Shown: positions 5,990-12,882 of the stretch, one piece after another | How the letters are laid out: the number at the start of each line of letters is the position of its first letter | Numbering within the stretch: the first letter of the stretch is position 1 | IMG/VR virus record: IMGVR_UViG_3300027296_000001 | Location: 1-59,778 of that record | Source of the DNA: a virus | Direction: 5' to 3' (one strand) | DNA: 59,778 nt | Notes under the pieces: generated by a model | What the model was told of the DNA's origin: nothing | Database searches by the model: none | Seen by the model: only the letters and a program-made list of their open reading frames with translations | Translations under genes and position numbers: made by a program

Positions 5990-6610
5990 TCAACGCGGCA
6001 CGAGGTTTTTGACCCTGGCGGCCCACTCGATGGCAACGTCGAGGATCGGCGGCTCAGTCTGAGATAGCAGATGAAATAGGCCGCGAGCCTTGGATTTCTG
6101 GATCTTCTTGATGAGGATACGGCCGTCATCGAGCCCCACGACGCAGAGCTCGTTGATCAGGTCAGGTGTGACAGGGCGGCGAACATCATCGTAAAAGACG
6201 AGCCATCGGTCGAAGAATGTGCCGAGGCTCTCGCCCCGGATCTCGACCGCGACGGTTGAAGCCGTGGAGCCGGCTGGGGCTGAAACCTCTTCGATCGGCG
6301 CGTCGTGTGGAAAGAAGTGCGTCGCAGCGCCGGCCCCGACATATCCGACGAGCGGAACGAGGCGTTCGGAAGCAGCGGCGGCCGGCGCAGCCTTGCCACG
6401 GTGCACGCCTTTGCCCGTCAGGAGCCATTCCAGCGAGACTCCGAACTTGCGGGCGTAGAGCTCGGCATTGGCCTTTTTGAAGCCGCGTGAGCCGTTTTCG
6501 TGGCCGAGATAAGTGGGCTGCTTGACCCCGAGCGCCTCCGCGGCCGCGGCGGCAGTGGGGTAGCCTGCATCTTTGCGGGCGGCGGCCAGTCGCTGGTGCA
6601 TTTCTTTCAT
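5990..6610 (-). CDS. cI-like repressor (XRE HTH plus S24 LexA-like autopeptidase)
   Basis: N-terminal HTH AAEALGVKQPTYLGHENG. Ala-Gly site in VGAGAA. GESL (Ser) and LIKKI (Lys) match S24 catalytic positions. Divergent from cro. Confidence 0.9.
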   Translation of the reverse strand: MKEMHQRLAAARKDAGYPTAAAAAEALGVKQPTYLGHENGSRGFKKANAELYARKFGVSLEWLLTGKGVHRGKAAPAAAASERLVPLVGYVGAGAATHFFPHDAPIEEVSAPAGSTASTVAVEIRGESLGTFFDRWLVFYDDVRRPVTPDLINELCVVGLDDGRILIKKIQKSKARGLFHLLSQTEPPILDVAIEWAARVKNLVPR

Positions 6611-6612
6611 TC

Positions 6613-6671
6613 ATGCAATTTGCATAGGAAAATTATGCAAGAGGCATTGACCGTTATTATGCAAAAGGCAT
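6613..6671. promoter_or_regulatory. cI-cro intergenic operators (OR analogue)
   Basis: ATGCAATTTGCAT (6613-6625, a perfect palindrome), ATGCAAGAGGCAT (6635-6647) and ATGCAAAAGGCAT (6659-6671). TTGACC and TATTAT elements lie between them. Confidence 0.65.
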
Positions 6672-6680
6672 AGTCGAGCC

Positions 6681-6887
6681 ATGGATGCGCAACTGATTCG
6701 CAAAGCTCGGGAACTCACCGGCGAAAGCCAGGCGACCTTTGGCGCGCGCTTCGGCGTCGACCAGAGCACCGTGCACCGCTGGGAAATCGGCGGGCCGCCC
6801 ACCCGGGGCGCCGCGAAGATCATGGTGACCCGCGAGGTCGAGGCGATCCTCGCTGCGCATGCGCCCAAAGATGGGGCATCGTCATGA
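6681..6887 (+). CDS. Cro-like HTH regulator
   Basis: 68 aa. RELTGESQATFGARFGVDQSTVHRWE is an XRE-type HTH. Divergent from the repressor. Confidence 0.8.
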   Translation: MDAQLIRKARELTGESQATFGARFGVDQSTVHRWEIGGPPTRGAAKIMVTREVEAILAAHAPKDGASS

Positions 6888-7089
6888 CCGCCTCCAGCAC
6901 CACAATCGTTGCCACCACCACAGCTCATGCGGTCGCACAGCTTCGCGGCGAGACTTGCGCACAGCGTCCTGGACCCGGTCTTCCGTTTTCGTCTGAACAG
7001 TTTGCTTCTGTGTCATTTGTTGCGTCCGGAGTTGCGTCATGTCGATTGCCGAATCGTGCACGTTGCCGGTTGCGAGGCCTAGGAGAACG

Positions 7090-7109
7090 CTTCGAACAAG
7101 TGTTCGAAG
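7090..7109. promoter_or_regulatory. Perfect 9-bp inverted repeat CTTCGAACA-AG-TGTTCGAAG
   Basis: Read directly. It lies 20 nt upstream of the TTG 7129 start candidate. Confidence 0.4.
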
Positions 7110-7128
7110 AGACCCGCAGGCCGAACGA

Positions 7129-7311
7129 TTGTCGAAATTCGGCCGCGTATGTCTCACGCTTTGGCCTGACCAGAAGGCGGACGTCATCCTGGCGCAGCGT
7201 ATCGGCTGCTCGGAGCGCGCGGCGCAATTCTACATCACCGGCGACCGCGAGCCTTCCTACGAAGCGCTCATGGTCGTGCTCGACGAACTACGGCCCCGCA
7301 AGCGGGCGTGA
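7129..7311 (+). CDS. Small HTH protein (Cro/CII-like); start uncertain
   Basis: ILAQRIGCSERAAQFYITGDREPSYEAL resembles an HTH. Third-position GC is high only from about 7129 onward (TTG). The ATG at 7039 is the alternative start. Confidence 0.5.
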   Translation: MSKFGRVCLTLWPDQKADVILAQRIGCSERAAQFYITGDREPSYEALMVVLDELRPRKRA

Positions 7312-7468
7312 GGTATCCCAAGCGAAAGCAACCGAAGGCAAAGCGGCGAGCACGGGCAATGCCATGATGGGGCCCGCGTCGAAGGGGTTGCGAGTAGGCG
7401 AGCCGGCGCGGACCGGAAGGCTGAGTTGGCCGGCCCAAGGGCGAACCTCAAACGTCAGCGAACGTGGC

Positions 7469-7781
7469 GTGACAGCTGGAGAGACAGCACGGAATTCACG
7501 GGCATCATCGCGCGAAAAGCGGAGACCAGACGCGAGCGGTGAGCTTCCTGGTACGGATCCGGAAACGTCATCTTCGCCGGGCCGTAAAATGGGCGGCGTA
7601 TACCGCAATCACGACGTGACGGCCGGGAGAGACCGGCAACCGAGCTTTGGCAGTGCCAATTCTTTTTCTGCCATCGGAAGCGCGAGAGGCACTAGCGCCA
7701 TGCTCCATCCCGGGGTCGTAGATGGGTCAACCGCATCAACCTTGCAGGCCGGGACAGCGGTGACAGCCGGAGAGACGGCAC
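7469..7781 (+). repeat. Three copies of GTGAC-R-stem-GAGAGA-stem (7469-7490, 7616-7640, 7760-7781)
   Basis: Stems are GCTG/CAGC, GCCGG/CCGGC and GCCG/CGGC. The loop and the GTGAC leader are invariant. Spacing is 147 and 144 nt. Confidence 0.7.
7647..7667 (+). terminator. Weak intrinsic-terminator-like hairpin plus T-run
   Basis: TTGGC-AGT-GCCAA followed by TTCTTTTT. The stem is short, so the call is tentative. Confidence 0.3.
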
Positions 7782-8053
7782 CTGTACTATCGCTTCGCGG
7801 CGGCGTGGGAAATCCGACAGACACGCAGGCTATGACGCGGCGCGCCGAGCCGCTGAGCTGCCTAGGTACGGCGGCGGGGTTGACGGTCCCGCCCGCGAGC
7901 AATTCGAAATTCGGTTCGGGCGACGGCCCTGGCATCCATCAGCCCGGGTCAATGACACGGGGCGGCGATCTACTCGCGACGGCTCCGTCGGGAAGGGCGC
8001 GTCAACGCGCTATGTGCCCCGCCGTCGGCCCGGAGCTTTGCGGGGAGGGCGGC

Positions 8054-8560
8054 ATGAGCGAAACCGACGGCGATATCAAGTTCGATCCCGTCAACATGGG
8101 GCAGGCGCTTGGCGTTCTCGCTGATGTGGTCAGTAGCTACGTCAGCGCGACGCACACTGCGGCCCTGGCCGACGACCGTAAGAAGTCCGCGCAGGTCAAC
8201 CTGGCCCTCTTCCTGCACAGCCTCTGCATGCGCTCGAAATACAAGGCCGAGACGGCCGATATCCTGGACATTATCAGCGCCCAGTTGCGGATGCAGGCGA
8301 ATGAGGAGGGCGCTGATCCCTCGACCACGGATCTCTTGAAGCCGACCGGCAATGACGGCGTCGTCAATGCCGAAATCTGCTTCAACTCGCTGCTGCTGAT
8401 GGGCGATGTCAACGTCACCCAAGAGCAGGTGGCGACCTGGTCGCAGGACCAGATGGACCGCGCCTATGACTGGGCGATGCGGGTTCACCTCCACGCCAGC
8501 GACAATCCGGGCGTCTTCGTGCCGGATCGCCCTGACTTTCTTCCGGGGAGGGTAGCGTGA
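8054..8560 (+). CDS. Hypothetical early protein
   Basis: SD GGGGAGGG precedes ATG 8054. Codon bias is gene-like from here on. Confidence 0.65.
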   Translation: MSETDGDIKFDPVNMGQALGVLADVVSSYVSATHTAALADDRKKSAQVNLALFLHSLCMRSKYKAETADILDIISAQLRMQANEEGADPSTTDLLKPTGNDGVVNAEICFNSLLLMGDVNVTQEQVATWSQDQMDRAYDWAMRVHLHASDNPGVFVPDRPDFLPGRVA

Positions 8561-8886
8561 GAACGCGCGACAAACTTGCTGCCGAGCTGCGCAAGGTTGG
8601 GTCGATGTCGGCGCAACACGGCGCCCTGTACGAGGCGTTCGCCAAGCGCGCCGAGACGGGCGAGTTCGACGACTACGCCGACACCTACGTCTGCCCGATT
8701 ACGCAGCTGCATCACGAACTGAGCTGTGCCGGCTTCACCAAGTTTGCCGCGCGCGTGGCCGCTGGCGAATTCGACGCGACCAAAGAAGAGAGTGACGAGT
8801 GGATGCGCAGTCCGGCAGGGCAAGAGGCCGCCAGGCGCCTATCGCCGGAGATGCGCAAGGTGCTCGGCATGGAAGTGATGAATTGA
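8557..8886 (+). CDS. Hypothetical protein
   Basis: GTG start in a GTGA overlap with the upstream stop. Confidence 0.55.
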   Translation: MRTRDKLAAELRKVGSMSAQHGALYEAFAKRAETGEFDDYADTYVCPITQLHHELSCAGFTKFAARVAAGEFDATKEESDEWMRSPAGQEAARRLSPEMRKVLGMEVMN

Positions 8887-8900
8887 GGGGGCTGGTCTCA

Positions 8901-9158
8901 GTGGCTGACATCAAGAATGTGTTGCTACGGGCGCAAAGCGAAATTCTGACGCTGCGTCATCGCAACGAAGTGCTGCAGGCCAAGGTCGACACGATGGACC
9001 TGTTCGCGCTCGTGCTGCGGACACAGCCCGCATACCAATCGGTCGGCATGGGCGAGGACGTCGCCTGGCTCATCGAAAAGGAAGTCGCAGAAATCAACCA
9101 CCGTGAAGCGGTGCCAGATCCGAAACCCGTTGAGGCCGTTCCACGCTCCGATAGCTGA
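8901..9158 (+). CDS. Hypothetical coiled-coil protein
   Basis: GTG 8901 with SD GAGGGGG upstream. Confidence 0.5.
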   Translation: MADIKNVLLRAQSEILTLRHRNEVLQAKVDTMDLFALVLRTQPAYQSVGMGEDVAWLIEKEVAEINHREAVPDPKPVEAVPRSDS

Positions 9159-10908: not shown

Positions 10909-11093
10909 TGTCGCTTGTCGAGGATCTCCAGAAACAGCAGCAAGAGGTCGATCGCCGGCTCGCCAAGGCGCTCGAGGATGTAGGCCGTAGCGCGCTCGGG
11001 ATGCCGTCAGCCGCCGACACCTTTCGCGCCATGCTCGATCGCGCGGGCCTCGCGCTGATGCTGAAGGCTAAACCGGAGGAGCCCCAGCGATGA
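10908..11093 (+). CDS. Hypothetical protein
   Basis: Coupled to the upstream gene, 61 aa. Confidence 0.5.
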   Translation: MSLVEDLQKQQQEVDRRLAKALEDVGRSALGMPSAADTFRAMLDRAGLALMLKAKPEEPQR

Positions 11094-11698
11094 GTAATAA
11101 GTCACGAAAGCCGCGAAAGCAGCGCTGGCAGAGCCTCAAGGGTATGACCGATGAGCAGCGGTGCAACCACGTTAGAGCGCTGTCTCGTGACAGGTACGCG
11201 CGTCAAGCCGCGATCCGGCGGGCAAGCCGCGCTGCCGATCCTTTGCATCTAATCGGCACGGTCGATCTCGCATACATGGCCGGCCTCATTGATGGGGAGG
11301 GGTCGATCTACTGCCTTGCTCACGGCGGTGGTAAGACGTGCTACCCGACGATCACCGTCGCGATGACCGATTTTGGCGTGATCGAATGGCTGGCCAGTAA
11401 ATGGCGGGTTAAGACCAGCAAGATGCCGCGCCGGGTCGCGACATATAAGCCCGCGGTCTTCGTGCGGCTGTCTGGAGAGCGAGCGCGACTGCTGTGCGAG
11501 CTCCTGCTGCCCTATCTCAAGGTGAAACGTGCTCAAGCGGCGCTTGTCCAAGAGTTCCCGTTAGACGCGCGTTCTGGCCCCGGAATCAAGGTCGGCGCGT
11601 CCGAGATCAATCGACGCCGTTTTGCGCTTCGAGATAAGATCAATGGCCTCAACCACGCTCCGAGAAATGCCAGTTATCGGCGTGGAGCGGCGGCATGA
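11090..11698 (+). CDS. LAGLIDADG-family homing endonuclease (single motif)
   Basis: LAYMAGLIDGEGSI motif. Basic N-terminus. ATGA-coupled on both sides. Confidence 0.8.
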   Translation: MSNKSRKPRKQRWQSLKGMTDEQRCNHVRALSRDRYARQAAIRRASRAADPLHLIGTVDLAYMAGLIDGEGSIYCLAHGGGKTCYPTITVAMTDFGVIEWLASKWRVKTSKMPRRVATYKPAVFVRLSGERARLLCELLLPYLKVKRAQAALVQEFPLDARSGPGIKVGASEINRRRFALRDKINGLNHAPRNASYRRGAAA

Positions 11699-12882
11699 CT
11701 GGCCAGAGTAAGATCGAGTGGACTGATCAAACTTGGAATCCGATCGTCGGTTGTTCGATAGTCTCACCTGGCTGCACCAACTGCTACGCGATGCGGCAGG
11801 CATGGCGGTTCAAAGCCTCATATCTTGGCCGCAAGGTTGCAGGCCCGGTCGCTGAGAATGTGGTGCGCAAGGTCAACGGCAATGCTGTCTGGACCGGACA
11901 GCTCGCGATGGCGCCTGACTATGCGTTCTTCGCGCCTCTCCACCGCAAGAAACCGACCAAATATTTCGTGAATTCGATGGGCGATCTTTTCCACGAAGAT
12001 TGTCCCGACGAGTGGATCGACCGCGTGTTCGCCGTCATAGCGCTGGCTCCGCAGCATACCTTTCAGGTGCTGACGAAGCGCGCGAAGCGGATGCGGGAGT
12101 ATCTCTGTGGCGATTGGGCTCATCGTTCCTACGGCATAGCAAAGGCGCTTCCGGGTTTCGCGTTGGGTAAGATCAACATTGTTAGCGGTTCGCTCCCGAA
12201 CGTCTGGCTGGGTGTCTCGGCAGAACGGCAGCCGGAAGCCGACGAGCGGATTCCGGAGCTGCTCGCCACGCCGGCGATGGTGCGCTTTGTCTCAATCGAG
12301 CCGCTGCTCGGGCCGATACGCCTCGATCGAGTTGAAGAAGACGTCGATGCGTTCGCTGATTGTGGCGGTCATCCAGATCCGCACTGGCCGCTCGATACGC
12401 AGGACGCCACTTGGCTGAACGCGCTGCGCGGGGTCATGGAGGCAGAAGCGCGTAGTCCTGCCGGAGAGAAGCTTGGCGATATCGATGTCGGCCTCAAGCA
12501 CGAAGGCGGAAAGCTCGATTGGGTGATCGTCGGCGGGGAGAGCGGCCGCGAAGCTCGCCCGATGCATCCCGACTGGGCGCGAGCACTGCGCGATCAATGC
12601 GCCGCGGCCAAGGTTGCGTTCTTCTTCAAGCAGTGGGGCGAATGGGCTCCCCAAATTGGCGCCGTCGATGGCTGGACGATAGCCGACAATCCGGAGATCA
12701 GCCGGCTCGATCATCGCGAATGGGAAGATGGCCGCTGGAGCGATGTCTTCCGCCCAATGTGGTGCGATTTCCAAGACGGCAACTACGACGAAGCCCAGAC
12801 GGTTTCGCGGATCGGCAAGAAGGGTGCCGGCCGCAAGCTCGATGGCGTCGAGCACAACGAATTCCCGCGGGTGCCGGCATGA
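11695..12882 (+). CDS. Phage Gp37/Gp68 family protein (DUF5131)
   Basis: N-terminal KIEWTDQTWNPIVGCSIVSPGCTNCYA. Internal DLFHED, and DWVIVGGESG..RPMHPDW..FFFKQWGEW. Confidence 0.85.
   Translation: MTGQSKIEWTDQTWNPIVGCSIVSPGCTNCYAMRQAWRFKASYLGRKVAGPVAENVVRKVNGNAVWTGQLAMAPDYAFFAPLHRKKPTKYFVNSMGDLFHEDCPDEWIDRVFAVIALAPQHTFQVLTKRAKRMREYLCGDWAHRSYGIAKALPGFALGKINIVSGSLPNVWLGVSAERQPEADERIPELLATPAMVRFVSIEPLLGPIRLDRVEEDVDAFADCGGHPDPHWPLDTQDATWLNALRGVMEAEARSPAGEKLGDIDVGLKHEGGKLDWVIVGGESGREARPMHPDWARALRDQCAAAKVAFFFKQWGEWAPQIGAVDGWTIADNPEISRLDHREWEDGRWSDVFRPMWCDFQDGNYDEAQTVSRIGKKGAGRKLDGVEHNEFPRVPA

Follow-up and report, generated by a model that had tools for sequence, protein, structure and literature searches.

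What are the three short, nearly identical hairpins that stand beside the immunity genes of a temperate phage, in a stretch of about 740 nt that has no gene-like composition? The stretch (positions 7312-8053) belongs to the 59,778-nt IMG/VR record IMGVR_UViG_3300027296_000001, which was analysed from its first to its last position and is called the window here. A reading of these letters alone (the sequence-only reading) had described three hairpins of the form GTGAC-R-stem-GAGAGA, had taken them for a helix under selection in a structured RNA, and had compared them with the nut and put sites of lambdoid phages. As detailed below, each hairpin is part of a larger unit that recurs in phages and prophages of many bacterial phyla, and a role in preventing transcription termination is our tentative first choice for its function.

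The pattern GTGACRGCN{2,3}GAGAGAN{2,3}GCA matched the window exactly three times (7469-7489, 7616-7638, and 7760-7780), always on the plus strand and with spacings of 147 and 144 nt, and it had no match in 100 dinucleotide shuffles of the window. The stems of the three copies are GCUG/CAGC, GCCGG/CCGGC, and GCCG/CGGC, so that both the number of hairpins and their pairing are as the sequence-only reading had given them. When the covariance model R1 was applied to every position of the window on both strands, only the three copies were returned, with 47.7, 15.8, and 40.4 bits; the next-best match reached 8.3 bits (E = 0.78).

The hairpin with the GAGAGA loop makes up no more than the 3′ half of a unit that measures ~40-80 nt. 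The unit consists, in this order, of a conserved A, a 5-bp helix P1 (5′-ACNNN...NNNGU-3′), a GAC-R linker, a hairpin P2, and a 3′ A. In P1, an ACNNN located upstream, in most cases with an A in front of it, forms pairs with the three bases 5′ of GUGAC and the GU of that segment, and the interior of the helix typically measures 8-25 nt and can reach ~90 nt. P2 comprises 4-5 bp with a loop-closing pair that is always G-C and a near-invariant GARAGA hexaloop. About 24 near-invariant nt per unit occupy the junctions and the loop, and the seven bases past the final A (positions +21 to +27) are G-poor and A/U-rich.

All three copies in the window, encoded on the plus strand, can be laid out according to this scheme. 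Copy 1 (7451-7489; R1 E = 1.5e-11) has a simple P1 hairpin formed by 7452-7456 and 7466-7470 (ACGUC/GGCGU, with one G-U pair), followed by the linker GACA (7471-7474) and by P2 (7475-7478 with 7485-7488) around the loop GAGAGA (7479-7484), and it ends with the 3′ A at 7489; its minimum-energy fold gives both P1 and P2. Copy 2 (7559-7638), for which the pattern match is complemented by an R1 score that refers to the 3′ part of the unit, contains a 43-nt insert within P1. A search for the P1 partner placed this helix at 7565-7569 and 7613-7617 (ACGUC/GACGU); the linker GACG (7618-7621), a P2 of 5 bp (7622-7626 with 7633-7637), the loop (7627-7632), and the 3′ A (7638) follow. In copy 3 (7724-7780; R1 E = 1.5e-9) the same search assigned P1 to 7730-7734 and 7757-7761 (ACCGC/GCGGU), and the linker GACA (7762-7765), P2 (7766-7769 with 7776-7779), the loop (7770-7775), and the 3′ A (7780) complete the unit. 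A hairpin with a U-run after copy 2, also pointed out in the sequence-only reading, is present on the plus strand at 7647-7669, beginning 9 nt past the copy (stem 7647-7659 TTGGCAGTGCCAA, then TTCTTTTTCT); it is a weak terminator-like site by consensus match only.

A related locus, L053, retains this arrangement with instructive differences. The P2 pair U7477-A7486 of copy 1 is G-U in L053, the unit of copy 2 is kept, and the counterpart of copy 3 has a 5-bp stem and a GAAAGA loop and is followed by a tRNA-Met(CAU) (L053 3767-3844), with which an unrelated non-coding sequence of the window (~7788-7900) is aligned. Homologues of the copy 3 unit were also found in L038, L062, and L108.

The evidence that the unit is selected as RNA comes from covariation. 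The two arms of P2 were complementary in 237 of the 244 exact-pattern matches listed, and the variable pair occurred as C-G (189), G-C (20), G-U (11), A-U (10), and U-A (7), which are five of the six possible pair types, G-U included. Divergent copies found with the covariance model exchange the entire P2 helix (CUCUG/CAGAG, CCUCG/CGGGG, GGGCG/CGCUC, GUCGG/CCGGC, ACCG/CGGU), and some of them extend it by a paired insertion, as copy 2 of the window does. When the loop was left free in the scan, GAGAGA (73 matches) and GAAAGA (13 matches) were the sole recurrent loops among the matches listed; the remaining 34 had loops seen once or twice and unrelated flanks, which is the pattern of chance matches. 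A partner for P1 was found in 100 of the 120 instances listed, compared to 47.5 ± 4.1 with permuted trinucleotides, and P1 occurred in more than 15 covarying combinations, such as ACGUC/GACGU, ACCGC/GCGGU, ACACC/GGUGU, and ACGAU/AUCGU. In alignments that were fitted to the structure, 99% of the cells of the viral loci were paired with 94 double-sided changes (19.6 ± 3.5 in shuffles), and 98.6% of the cells of the genome loci, which had stayed outside model building, were paired with 90 double-sided changes (18.5 ± 4.1 in shuffles). Both helices thus covary strongly. We consider it very likely that the unit is a selected RNA structure, and the earlier claim of a helix under selection now has strong support from hundreds of independent homologues. 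The unit is strand-specific, and the conservation of its junction and loop nucleotides across phyla is extreme.

An additional short stem, S1, encloses the 5′ P1 strand, from which its two arms are set off by loops of 1-3 and 0-2 nt. S1 had a mean length of 3.04 bp compared to 2.29 ± 0.087 bp in controls (z = 8.7, both data sets). Many units are H-type pseudoknots in which the 5′ strand of P1 lies in the loop of this short upstream stem. The clearest case is a chromosomal copy of Morganella morganii (L162), GGCAGC-A-ACGUC-A-GCUGCC ... GGCGU; in the window, candidate S1 strands are present in copy 2 (7559-7562 with 7577-7580) and copy 3 (7724-7727 with 7739-7742, GGGU/ACCU), likewise on the plus strand. 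A further helix joining the flanks (P0), which would pair an A-rich segment before the 3′ strand of P1 with the U-rich tail after P2, was rejected, as no excess pairing was observed (z = 0.9). The minimum-energy z-scores of the units were ~0, and the signal is therefore one of covariation, not of stability. RNAalifold recovered P2 only from the model-made alignment because the P1 columns are gapped there. As MAFFT did not align the P1 helices of natural units, owing to their variable insert length, the seed alignment of R1 was made from units whose P1 interior had been cut to 8 nt; this trimmed alignment was a search device only, and covariation was counted on real sequences aligned by the model.

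The exact pattern GTGACRGCNGGAGAGACNGCA was found in at least 120 IMG/VR contigs and in at least 120 stretches from bacterial species genomes, and the flanks of the matches were mutually unrelated. The motif spans more than 10 bacterial phyla. The genome matches came from Alpha-, Beta-, and Gammaproteobacteria, Clostridiales, Bifidobacteriaceae, Acidobacteriota, Verrucomicrobiota, Planctomycetota, Nitrospira, Bacteroidota, Lentisphaeria, Bdellovibrio-like bacteria, and Parcubacteria. The motif is present in 436 (8%) of the 5,426 complete E. coli genomes, where it was invariably chromosomal and outside annotated features, and in about 10 cultured phages. Arrays of two to three copies, as in the window, recur (for example in L207, L194, L218, L151, L017, L115, and Pseudomonas phage Itty13). 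These results show that the motif is a cross-phylum phage motif and not a feature local to the window, and that it is considerably more general than the window alone could show.

Scans with Rfam 15 models, which cover known ribozymes, riboswitches, C4/IsrK, and catalogued phage motifs, gave no family match for the unit: with cmscan, nothing overlapped any copy in the window segments 6000-9000 and 7300-7800 at E values up to 10, and the same was true of eight other loci (E ≤ 1), of Itty13 (E ≤ 5), and of an E. coli leader (E ≤ 1). A search of a literature library for the exact core sequence returned no paper, and the motif is absent from the main text of two catalogue papers (PMC5737381, PMC10690425). 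The motif appears to be an uncatalogued RNA family.

The stretch that holds the three units is also spanned by an open reading frame (ORF) of 558 codons, 6884-8560, which reads VTAGET, VTAGRD, and VTAGET across them. The sequence-only reading had noted this frame as a caveat, and it speaks for a translated repeat that all three motifs are in frame and that the variable positions coincide with the third codon positions of GTG ACA GCC GGA GAG ACG GCA. The latter coincidence arises because the motif has one freely covarying pair and one R position. Over 7313-8053 the GC content by codon position was flat in this frame (0.64/0.67/0.65), which agrees with the claim that nothing gene-like precedes 8054; the hand-counted GC values given along with that claim (57% at third and 75% at second positions) have to be replaced by 0.65 and 0.67. 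Positions 7314-7777 are 93.5% identical to L053, compared to 83% for the downstream gene, and the 34 substitutions are distributed 8/12/14 over the codon positions and accompanied by a 2-nt indel. Across the 237 motif instances listed, the VTAGETA frame stayed free of stop codons over medians of only 81 nt on the upstream side and 96 nt on the downstream side, and over 45 and 60 nt in low-GC genomes; moreover, stem-length variants of the motif add 2 nt and thereby shift the frame. Based on the flat codon-position GC, the lack of a third-position substitution bias, and the short open frames in homologues, a protein-coding repeat was rejected and the caveat dismissed: 7312-8053 is not coding. 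The annotated 1,980-nt "hypothetical protein" coding sequence of Bradyrhizobium phage ppBdUSDA122-1 (L245, 1760-3739), which includes the motif, probably does not represent a gene but a spurious ORF that high GC keeps open across a non-coding leader, as with 6884-8560 in the window. Annotation pipelines evidently cover such leaders in high-GC genomes with spurious ORFs.

The position of the untranslated stretch in the window can be described from its neighbours. A cI-like repressor gene on the minus strand (5990-6610; PHROG phrog_4, transcriptional repressor, E = 4e-19; Pfam HTH_3) and a cro-like helix-turn-helix gene on the plus strand (6681-6887; Pfam HTH_31 and HTH_3; PHROG transcriptional regulators) are divergently oriented, and this region is the immunity region of a temperate phage. 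Just 5′ of cro lies a candidate PR-like sigma-70 promoter (6647-6674, plus strand; TTGACC-16-CATAGT, with 9/12 consensus matches only). The untranslated leader begins at the end of a small ORF of 90 aa (7039-7311, plus strand, taken from the ORF list), which is moderately gene-like (GC by codon position 0.62/0.53/0.71), has an uncertain true start and an arginine-rich N-terminus (ARPRRTLRTSVRRDPQAERL), and gave no match in Pfam and PHROG searches. In L053 this ORF is replaced by unrelated sequence, though the leader is kept. The first 30 nt of the leader (TATCCCAAGCGAAAGCAACCGAAGGCAAAG, block 7315-7344, plus strand) are identical in L053 and in L021 (5103-5132) despite differing upstream genes, and this block marks a conserved left boundary of the leader module. 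The first gene-like ORF past the leader (8054-8560, plus strand, 168 aa, GC by codon position 0.63/0.40/0.82) has no Pfam or PHROG match and an N-terminus that is not arginine-rich. By its flat codon-position GC and its substitution pattern relative to L053, 7312-8053 (plus strand) is an untranslated leader that belongs to the early-right operon; its transcription presumably starts at the PR-like promoter and runs across cro and the small ORF. BLAST of the leader against phage and plasmid collections gave no match. The G+C content of the whole 59.8-kb window is 63.6%.

In other genomes, too, the home of the motif is untranslated phage regions, in which it is co-oriented with the flanking genes. 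As naive ORF calls are unreliable in high-GC loci, the statistics on orientation and spacing rest on lower-GC subsets. In the low-GC loci the motif was inside an ORF in 7 of 45 cases, and the gene downstream shared the strand of the motif in 30 cases, compared to 9 in which it was encoded on the other strand. ORF-free gaps that hold the motif had a median length of 199 nt, compared to 16 nt for other gaps. A conserved neighbouring gene, sought by clustering 202 downstream ORFs, was not found; these ORFs fell into 169 clusters, and no gene family is associated with the motif.

Cultured phages and E. coli prophages illustrate the range of locations. In Stenotrophomonas phage phiSHP3 the motif occupies the gap between the gene for the major capsid protein and its neighbour, and in Morganella phage IME1369_02 it separates the lysis genes from the terminase genes, in the leader of the latter. 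Itty13 carries two copies ahead of the small terminase gene, one of which opens an unannotated stretch of ~0.9 kb, while the other is located just upstream in an annotated ORF of the opposite strand. Between these two copies (L247, 2700-3650) there is an array of long hairpins bounded by GGCUGCAUCGGA ... CC(C/A)AUGCAG; inside one of these array units there are D and T arms resembling those of a tRNA, with an insertion, and this unit is called as a tRNA neither by ARAGORN nor by the tRNA model of Rfam. In E. coli prophages the motif occurs in a non-coding gap of 0.9-1 kb that extends from a cI-like gene to the early-left genes (kil, recE, and others). In the E. coli 4/1-1 prophage, a PL-like promoter (TTGACC-17-TAAAGT) is followed ~30-40 nt on by two tandem copies with GAAAGA loops, then by further variants, a terminator-like site, and the first gene. 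Two other features were observed in the locus of this prophage (L248): the segment 3571-3742 is 70-77% identical to mostly unannotated DNA in numerous enterobacterial phages (SPN1S, Tyrion, mEp390, SJ46, and D6 among them), and the segment 3816-3926 gave a sub-threshold RprA-like match (37.4 bits, gathering score 70), which has a terminator at its end and coincides in part with a T-arm and an acceptor end of tRNA-like form.

Judged by placement, the nut/put idea of the sequence-only reading seems to be the best-fitting explanation for the unit. It is upheld by the location after cro in the window and after a PL-like promoter in E. coli, whereas the boxA, the downstream N-like protein, and the similarity to HK022 put that it might have brought with it were not found. 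We tentatively favour, at a probability that is still low, a cis element of the put/nut type that prevents transcription termination. Such a unit would act in cis on the RNA that is just being made, much as the put RNA of HK022 does, following the logic of nut without an N protein. It would fold on leaving RNA polymerase and bind a conserved part of the elongation machinery, either the polymerase itself or a universal elongation factor, and the resulting complex would be resistant to Rho-dependent and intrinsic termination. In the window, polymerases could thereby traverse all 740 nt of the untranslated leader, with the terminator-like hairpin 7647-7669 in it, and reach the early genes from 8054 onward, and several copies would raise the fraction of modified polymerases. 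That the core is near-identical across phyla speaks for a partner that is universal in bacteria, or else for catalysis. The placement after early promoters in prophages without an N gene, before structural operons, and in tRNA clusters fits an element for polymerase processivity. It is quite possible, though we would not call it probable, that the unit with its ~24 invariant nt in more than 10 phyla represents a new RNA class that is either a self-cleaving ribozyme or a direct binder of RNA polymerase or the elongation complex; in the second case it may be a universal, protein-independent put-like antiterminator for untranslated leaders and for arrays of tRNAs or other non-coding RNAs.

The put RNAs of HK022, ~70 nt long with two stem-loops, need no phage protein and inhibit termination, intrinsic as well as Rho-dependent, via the zinc-binding domain of the β′ subunit; putL is situated just past PL and putR ~270 nt past the start of PR (PMC9378689). 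The motif unit is of comparable size to put with its two helical domains, and like put it is found in early leaders, after PL in E. coli prophages and after cro in this window, with promoters assigned by consensus. The architectures differ, as put forms a V-shaped pair of long stem-loops with a triplex and the motif a pseudoknot plus a hexaloop hairpin. Unlike put, the motif is also spread over many phyla, located in tRNA clusters and after capsid genes, and often present in two to three tandem copies. Identity with put was rejected since there is no similarity by sequence or covariance model, and the putR region, when read directly, did not resemble the motif. The HK022 put RNA is the closest analogue in logic, and not a homologue.

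Several observations weigh against a put-like function. R1 run over the whole HK022 genome with filters off gave at best 6.3 bits (E = 2.4), and not at the put sites, and no boxA (CGCUCUUA-like) was found, since neither GCTCTT nor CTCTT occurs anywhere in 6888-8053. Same-strand terminator-like sites downstream of the motif were at background (0.025-0.035 per 50 nt), and in E. coli UPEC85 the operators are followed first by a terminator-like site and then, downstream of it, by the motif. Each prophage has the motif in just one of its early operons, as opposed to the put sites in both operons of HK022, and the promoters in the window and in E. coli are consensus matches only. Some locations are ones that an antiterminator would not evidently require. 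Several copies directly follow major capsid genes. In 9 of the 244 motifs listed a same-strand tRNA starts 1-11 nt past the last A, with none at 12-77 nt, and for ~17% of the motifs the start of an ORF with a Shine-Dalgarno sequence (SD-ORF) lies within 40 nt downstream. Finally, plasmids and integrative conjugative elements also use processive antitermination, and the motif is nearly absent from 72,556 plasmid records, with one real match in a 39-kb Morganella morganii record and one weak match (89.7%).

The tight coupling to the next gene leads to the reading that we rank directly after put-like antitermination, although it is itself rather unlikely: an RNA-processing module, that is, a new small self-cleaving ribozyme or a structure recognized by an RNase that all bacteria share, for instance RNase P or RNase E. 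Such a module would cut polycistronic phage RNA between functional units and thereby define or insulate the 5′ end of the following mRNA or pre-tRNA, or the preceding 3′ end. The tRNA 5′ ends at 1-11 nt, with none at 12-77 nt, show how tight this coupling is, SD-ORF starts peak 20-40 nt downstream of the motif, and the G-poor, A/U-rich positions +21 to +27 resemble an RNase E site. The number of near-invariant nucleotides in the junctions and the loop, together with the pseudoknot, is a profile typical of catalytic RNAs, and the independence from any particular downstream gene, the phage specificity, and the frequent arrays of two to three copies agree with the known small phage ribozymes. The hammerhead, twister, twister-sister, pistol, hatchet, and hepatitis delta virus-like/theta ribozymes of phages are likewise compact, with a pseudoknot and many invariant unpaired nucleotides, and they are gene-independent, intergenic, phage-associated, sometimes clustered, and in some cases located beside tRNAs. 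They differ from the motif in that the latter matches no Rfam ribozyme model and has a P2 sequence whose conservation is unusual for a ribozyme helix of purely structural role. In addition, only ~20% of the copies directly abut a downstream gene, the E. coli prophage unit lies ~30 nt from the presumed transcript start with little upstream RNA to remove, and new ribozyme classes are rare, so that the prior is low.

The tRNAs near the motif bear on another reading, which we regard as doubtful: a discrete trans-acting small RNA, excised like a tRNA from an untranslated precursor and serving as a decoy, sponge, or regulator of a conserved factor of the host, which might have to do with translation or tRNA biology, with additional copies raising the dose. 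In same-strand tRNA clusters the units look like extra genes, as besides the nine cases with a tRNA 1-11 nt downstream there are ~20 more with a tRNA 32-290 nt upstream, and in L053 the third unit is followed by tRNA-Met. The multicopy arrays would fit, as would the terminator-like hairpin that follows the unit in Morganella-type phages as in a stand-alone small RNA gene, and the exposed invariant GARAGA loop and the GUGAC segment could form a binding surface. Most copies, however, are not near tRNAs and have no evident promoter or terminator of their own, terminators not being enriched downstream; the loop is not of the CsrA-type ANGGAN; and no conserved complementary target was found. Complementarity to or mimicry of rRNA was rejected, as the matches were at chance level (best 14/21), and a 7/8 resemblance of GGAGAGAC to GGAAAGAC at position 2056 of 23S rRNA was judged a coincidence. 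The unit is not itself a tRNA-like element, as it showed no cloverleaf to ARAGORN or the Rfam tRNA model and adjoins true tRNAs without overlap; in the window as a whole, ARAGORN called neither tRNAs nor tmRNAs. With tRNAs so close by, it is plausible that the unit is linked to the machinery for tRNA processing. The phage immunity RNAs C4 of P1/P7 and CI of P4, which RNase P processes, are, like the motif, small structured RNAs in the untranslated leader of their own operon. In contrast to these RNAs, the motif has no Rfam C4/IsrK match and no visible complementary target repeats, and its copies in the window are self-contained direct repeats.

A protein-dependent nut site, in which the hairpin would be the boxB analogue for an N-like arginine-rich phage protein, possibly the product of ORF 7039-7311, is very unlikely. 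In the lambda nut site as in the motif, an untranslated early leader contains a hairpin with a GC stem and a loop rich in purines, the GAAAGA loop of the E. coli variant comes closer still to GAAGA and GAAAA, the loops of lambda, and the N-terminus of ORF 7039-7311 is arginine-rich as mentioned. The logic of protecting untranslated RNA from Rho is also common to lambda nut, the boxA of rrn operons, and the role proposed for the motif. Yet boxB has a GNRA-like pentaloop, whereas the loop of the motif is the 6-nt GARAGA in essentially all copies, and the unit needs the additional long-range helix P1 with its pseudoknot, which boxB does not. N proteins diverge quickly, while the core of the motif is invariant across phyla with unrelated flanking genes; L053 keeps the leader although the upstream gene differs. 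No arginine-rich protein follows the leader in the window, and the first genes past the E. coli leaders examined have no arginine-rich N-terminus and encode no N-like protein. Membership among nut sites by boxA was rejected, because boxA is absent from the leader and is not enriched near the motif: GCTCTT occurred within 100 nt upstream in 3 and downstream in 5 of the 237 instances listed, compared to 3 in a control interval.

A tandem riboswitch aptamer, by which the downstream genes would respond to a universal metabolite or signal, is more improbable still. Its size, pseudoknot, and cross-phylum conservation resemble those of small aptamers, and the 5′ untranslated location and occasional tandem arrangement would fit. 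There is, however, no consistent expression platform, as terminators are at background and both the spacing and the sequence up to the SD and the start codon vary; in addition, units occur directly upstream of tRNAs and after capsid genes, and no Rfam riboswitch family matches. The least probable reading, a DNA-level site (operator, origin, packaging, or recombination) or the translated VTAGET repeat dealt with above, can point for the former to terminase genes near the motif in some phages, but G-U pairs in P1 and P2 are A-C mismatches on the other strand, the orientation follows the flanking genes, and long-range covariation does not suit a duplex DNA site.

If the unit is put-like, antitermination by RNA alone would be a general phage strategy across bacterial phyla rather than a curiosity of HK022, and the unit would offer synthetic biology a compact, host-independent part. 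If it is a ribozyme, it would define a new class of catalytic RNA. Either way, a recurrent long non-coding stretch in the immunity regions of prophages would be explained. As 8% of the complete E. coli genomes carry the motif, it is directly testable in this species, and also in cultured phages of Morganella, Stenotrophomonas, and Pseudomonas.

Two further features of the early region of the window should be mentioned. At 11090-12882 a gene for an HNH endonuclease (phrog_5046) is followed by a DUF5131 gene (phrog_2045); such pairs are frequent in phages, and this one has no relation to the motif. Within the leader, 23 nt past copy 3, a companion hairpin (7803-7826, plus strand; GCGUG-GGAAAUCCGACAGA-CACGC) represents a second recurrent leader module. 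The module GCGUGG(G)AAA...GACACGC recurs in the leader of an E. coli prophage (L249, 3653-3674) and in L065, L016, and L122, each time on the strand of the motif, and the companion hairpin may be a partner element of the motif system.

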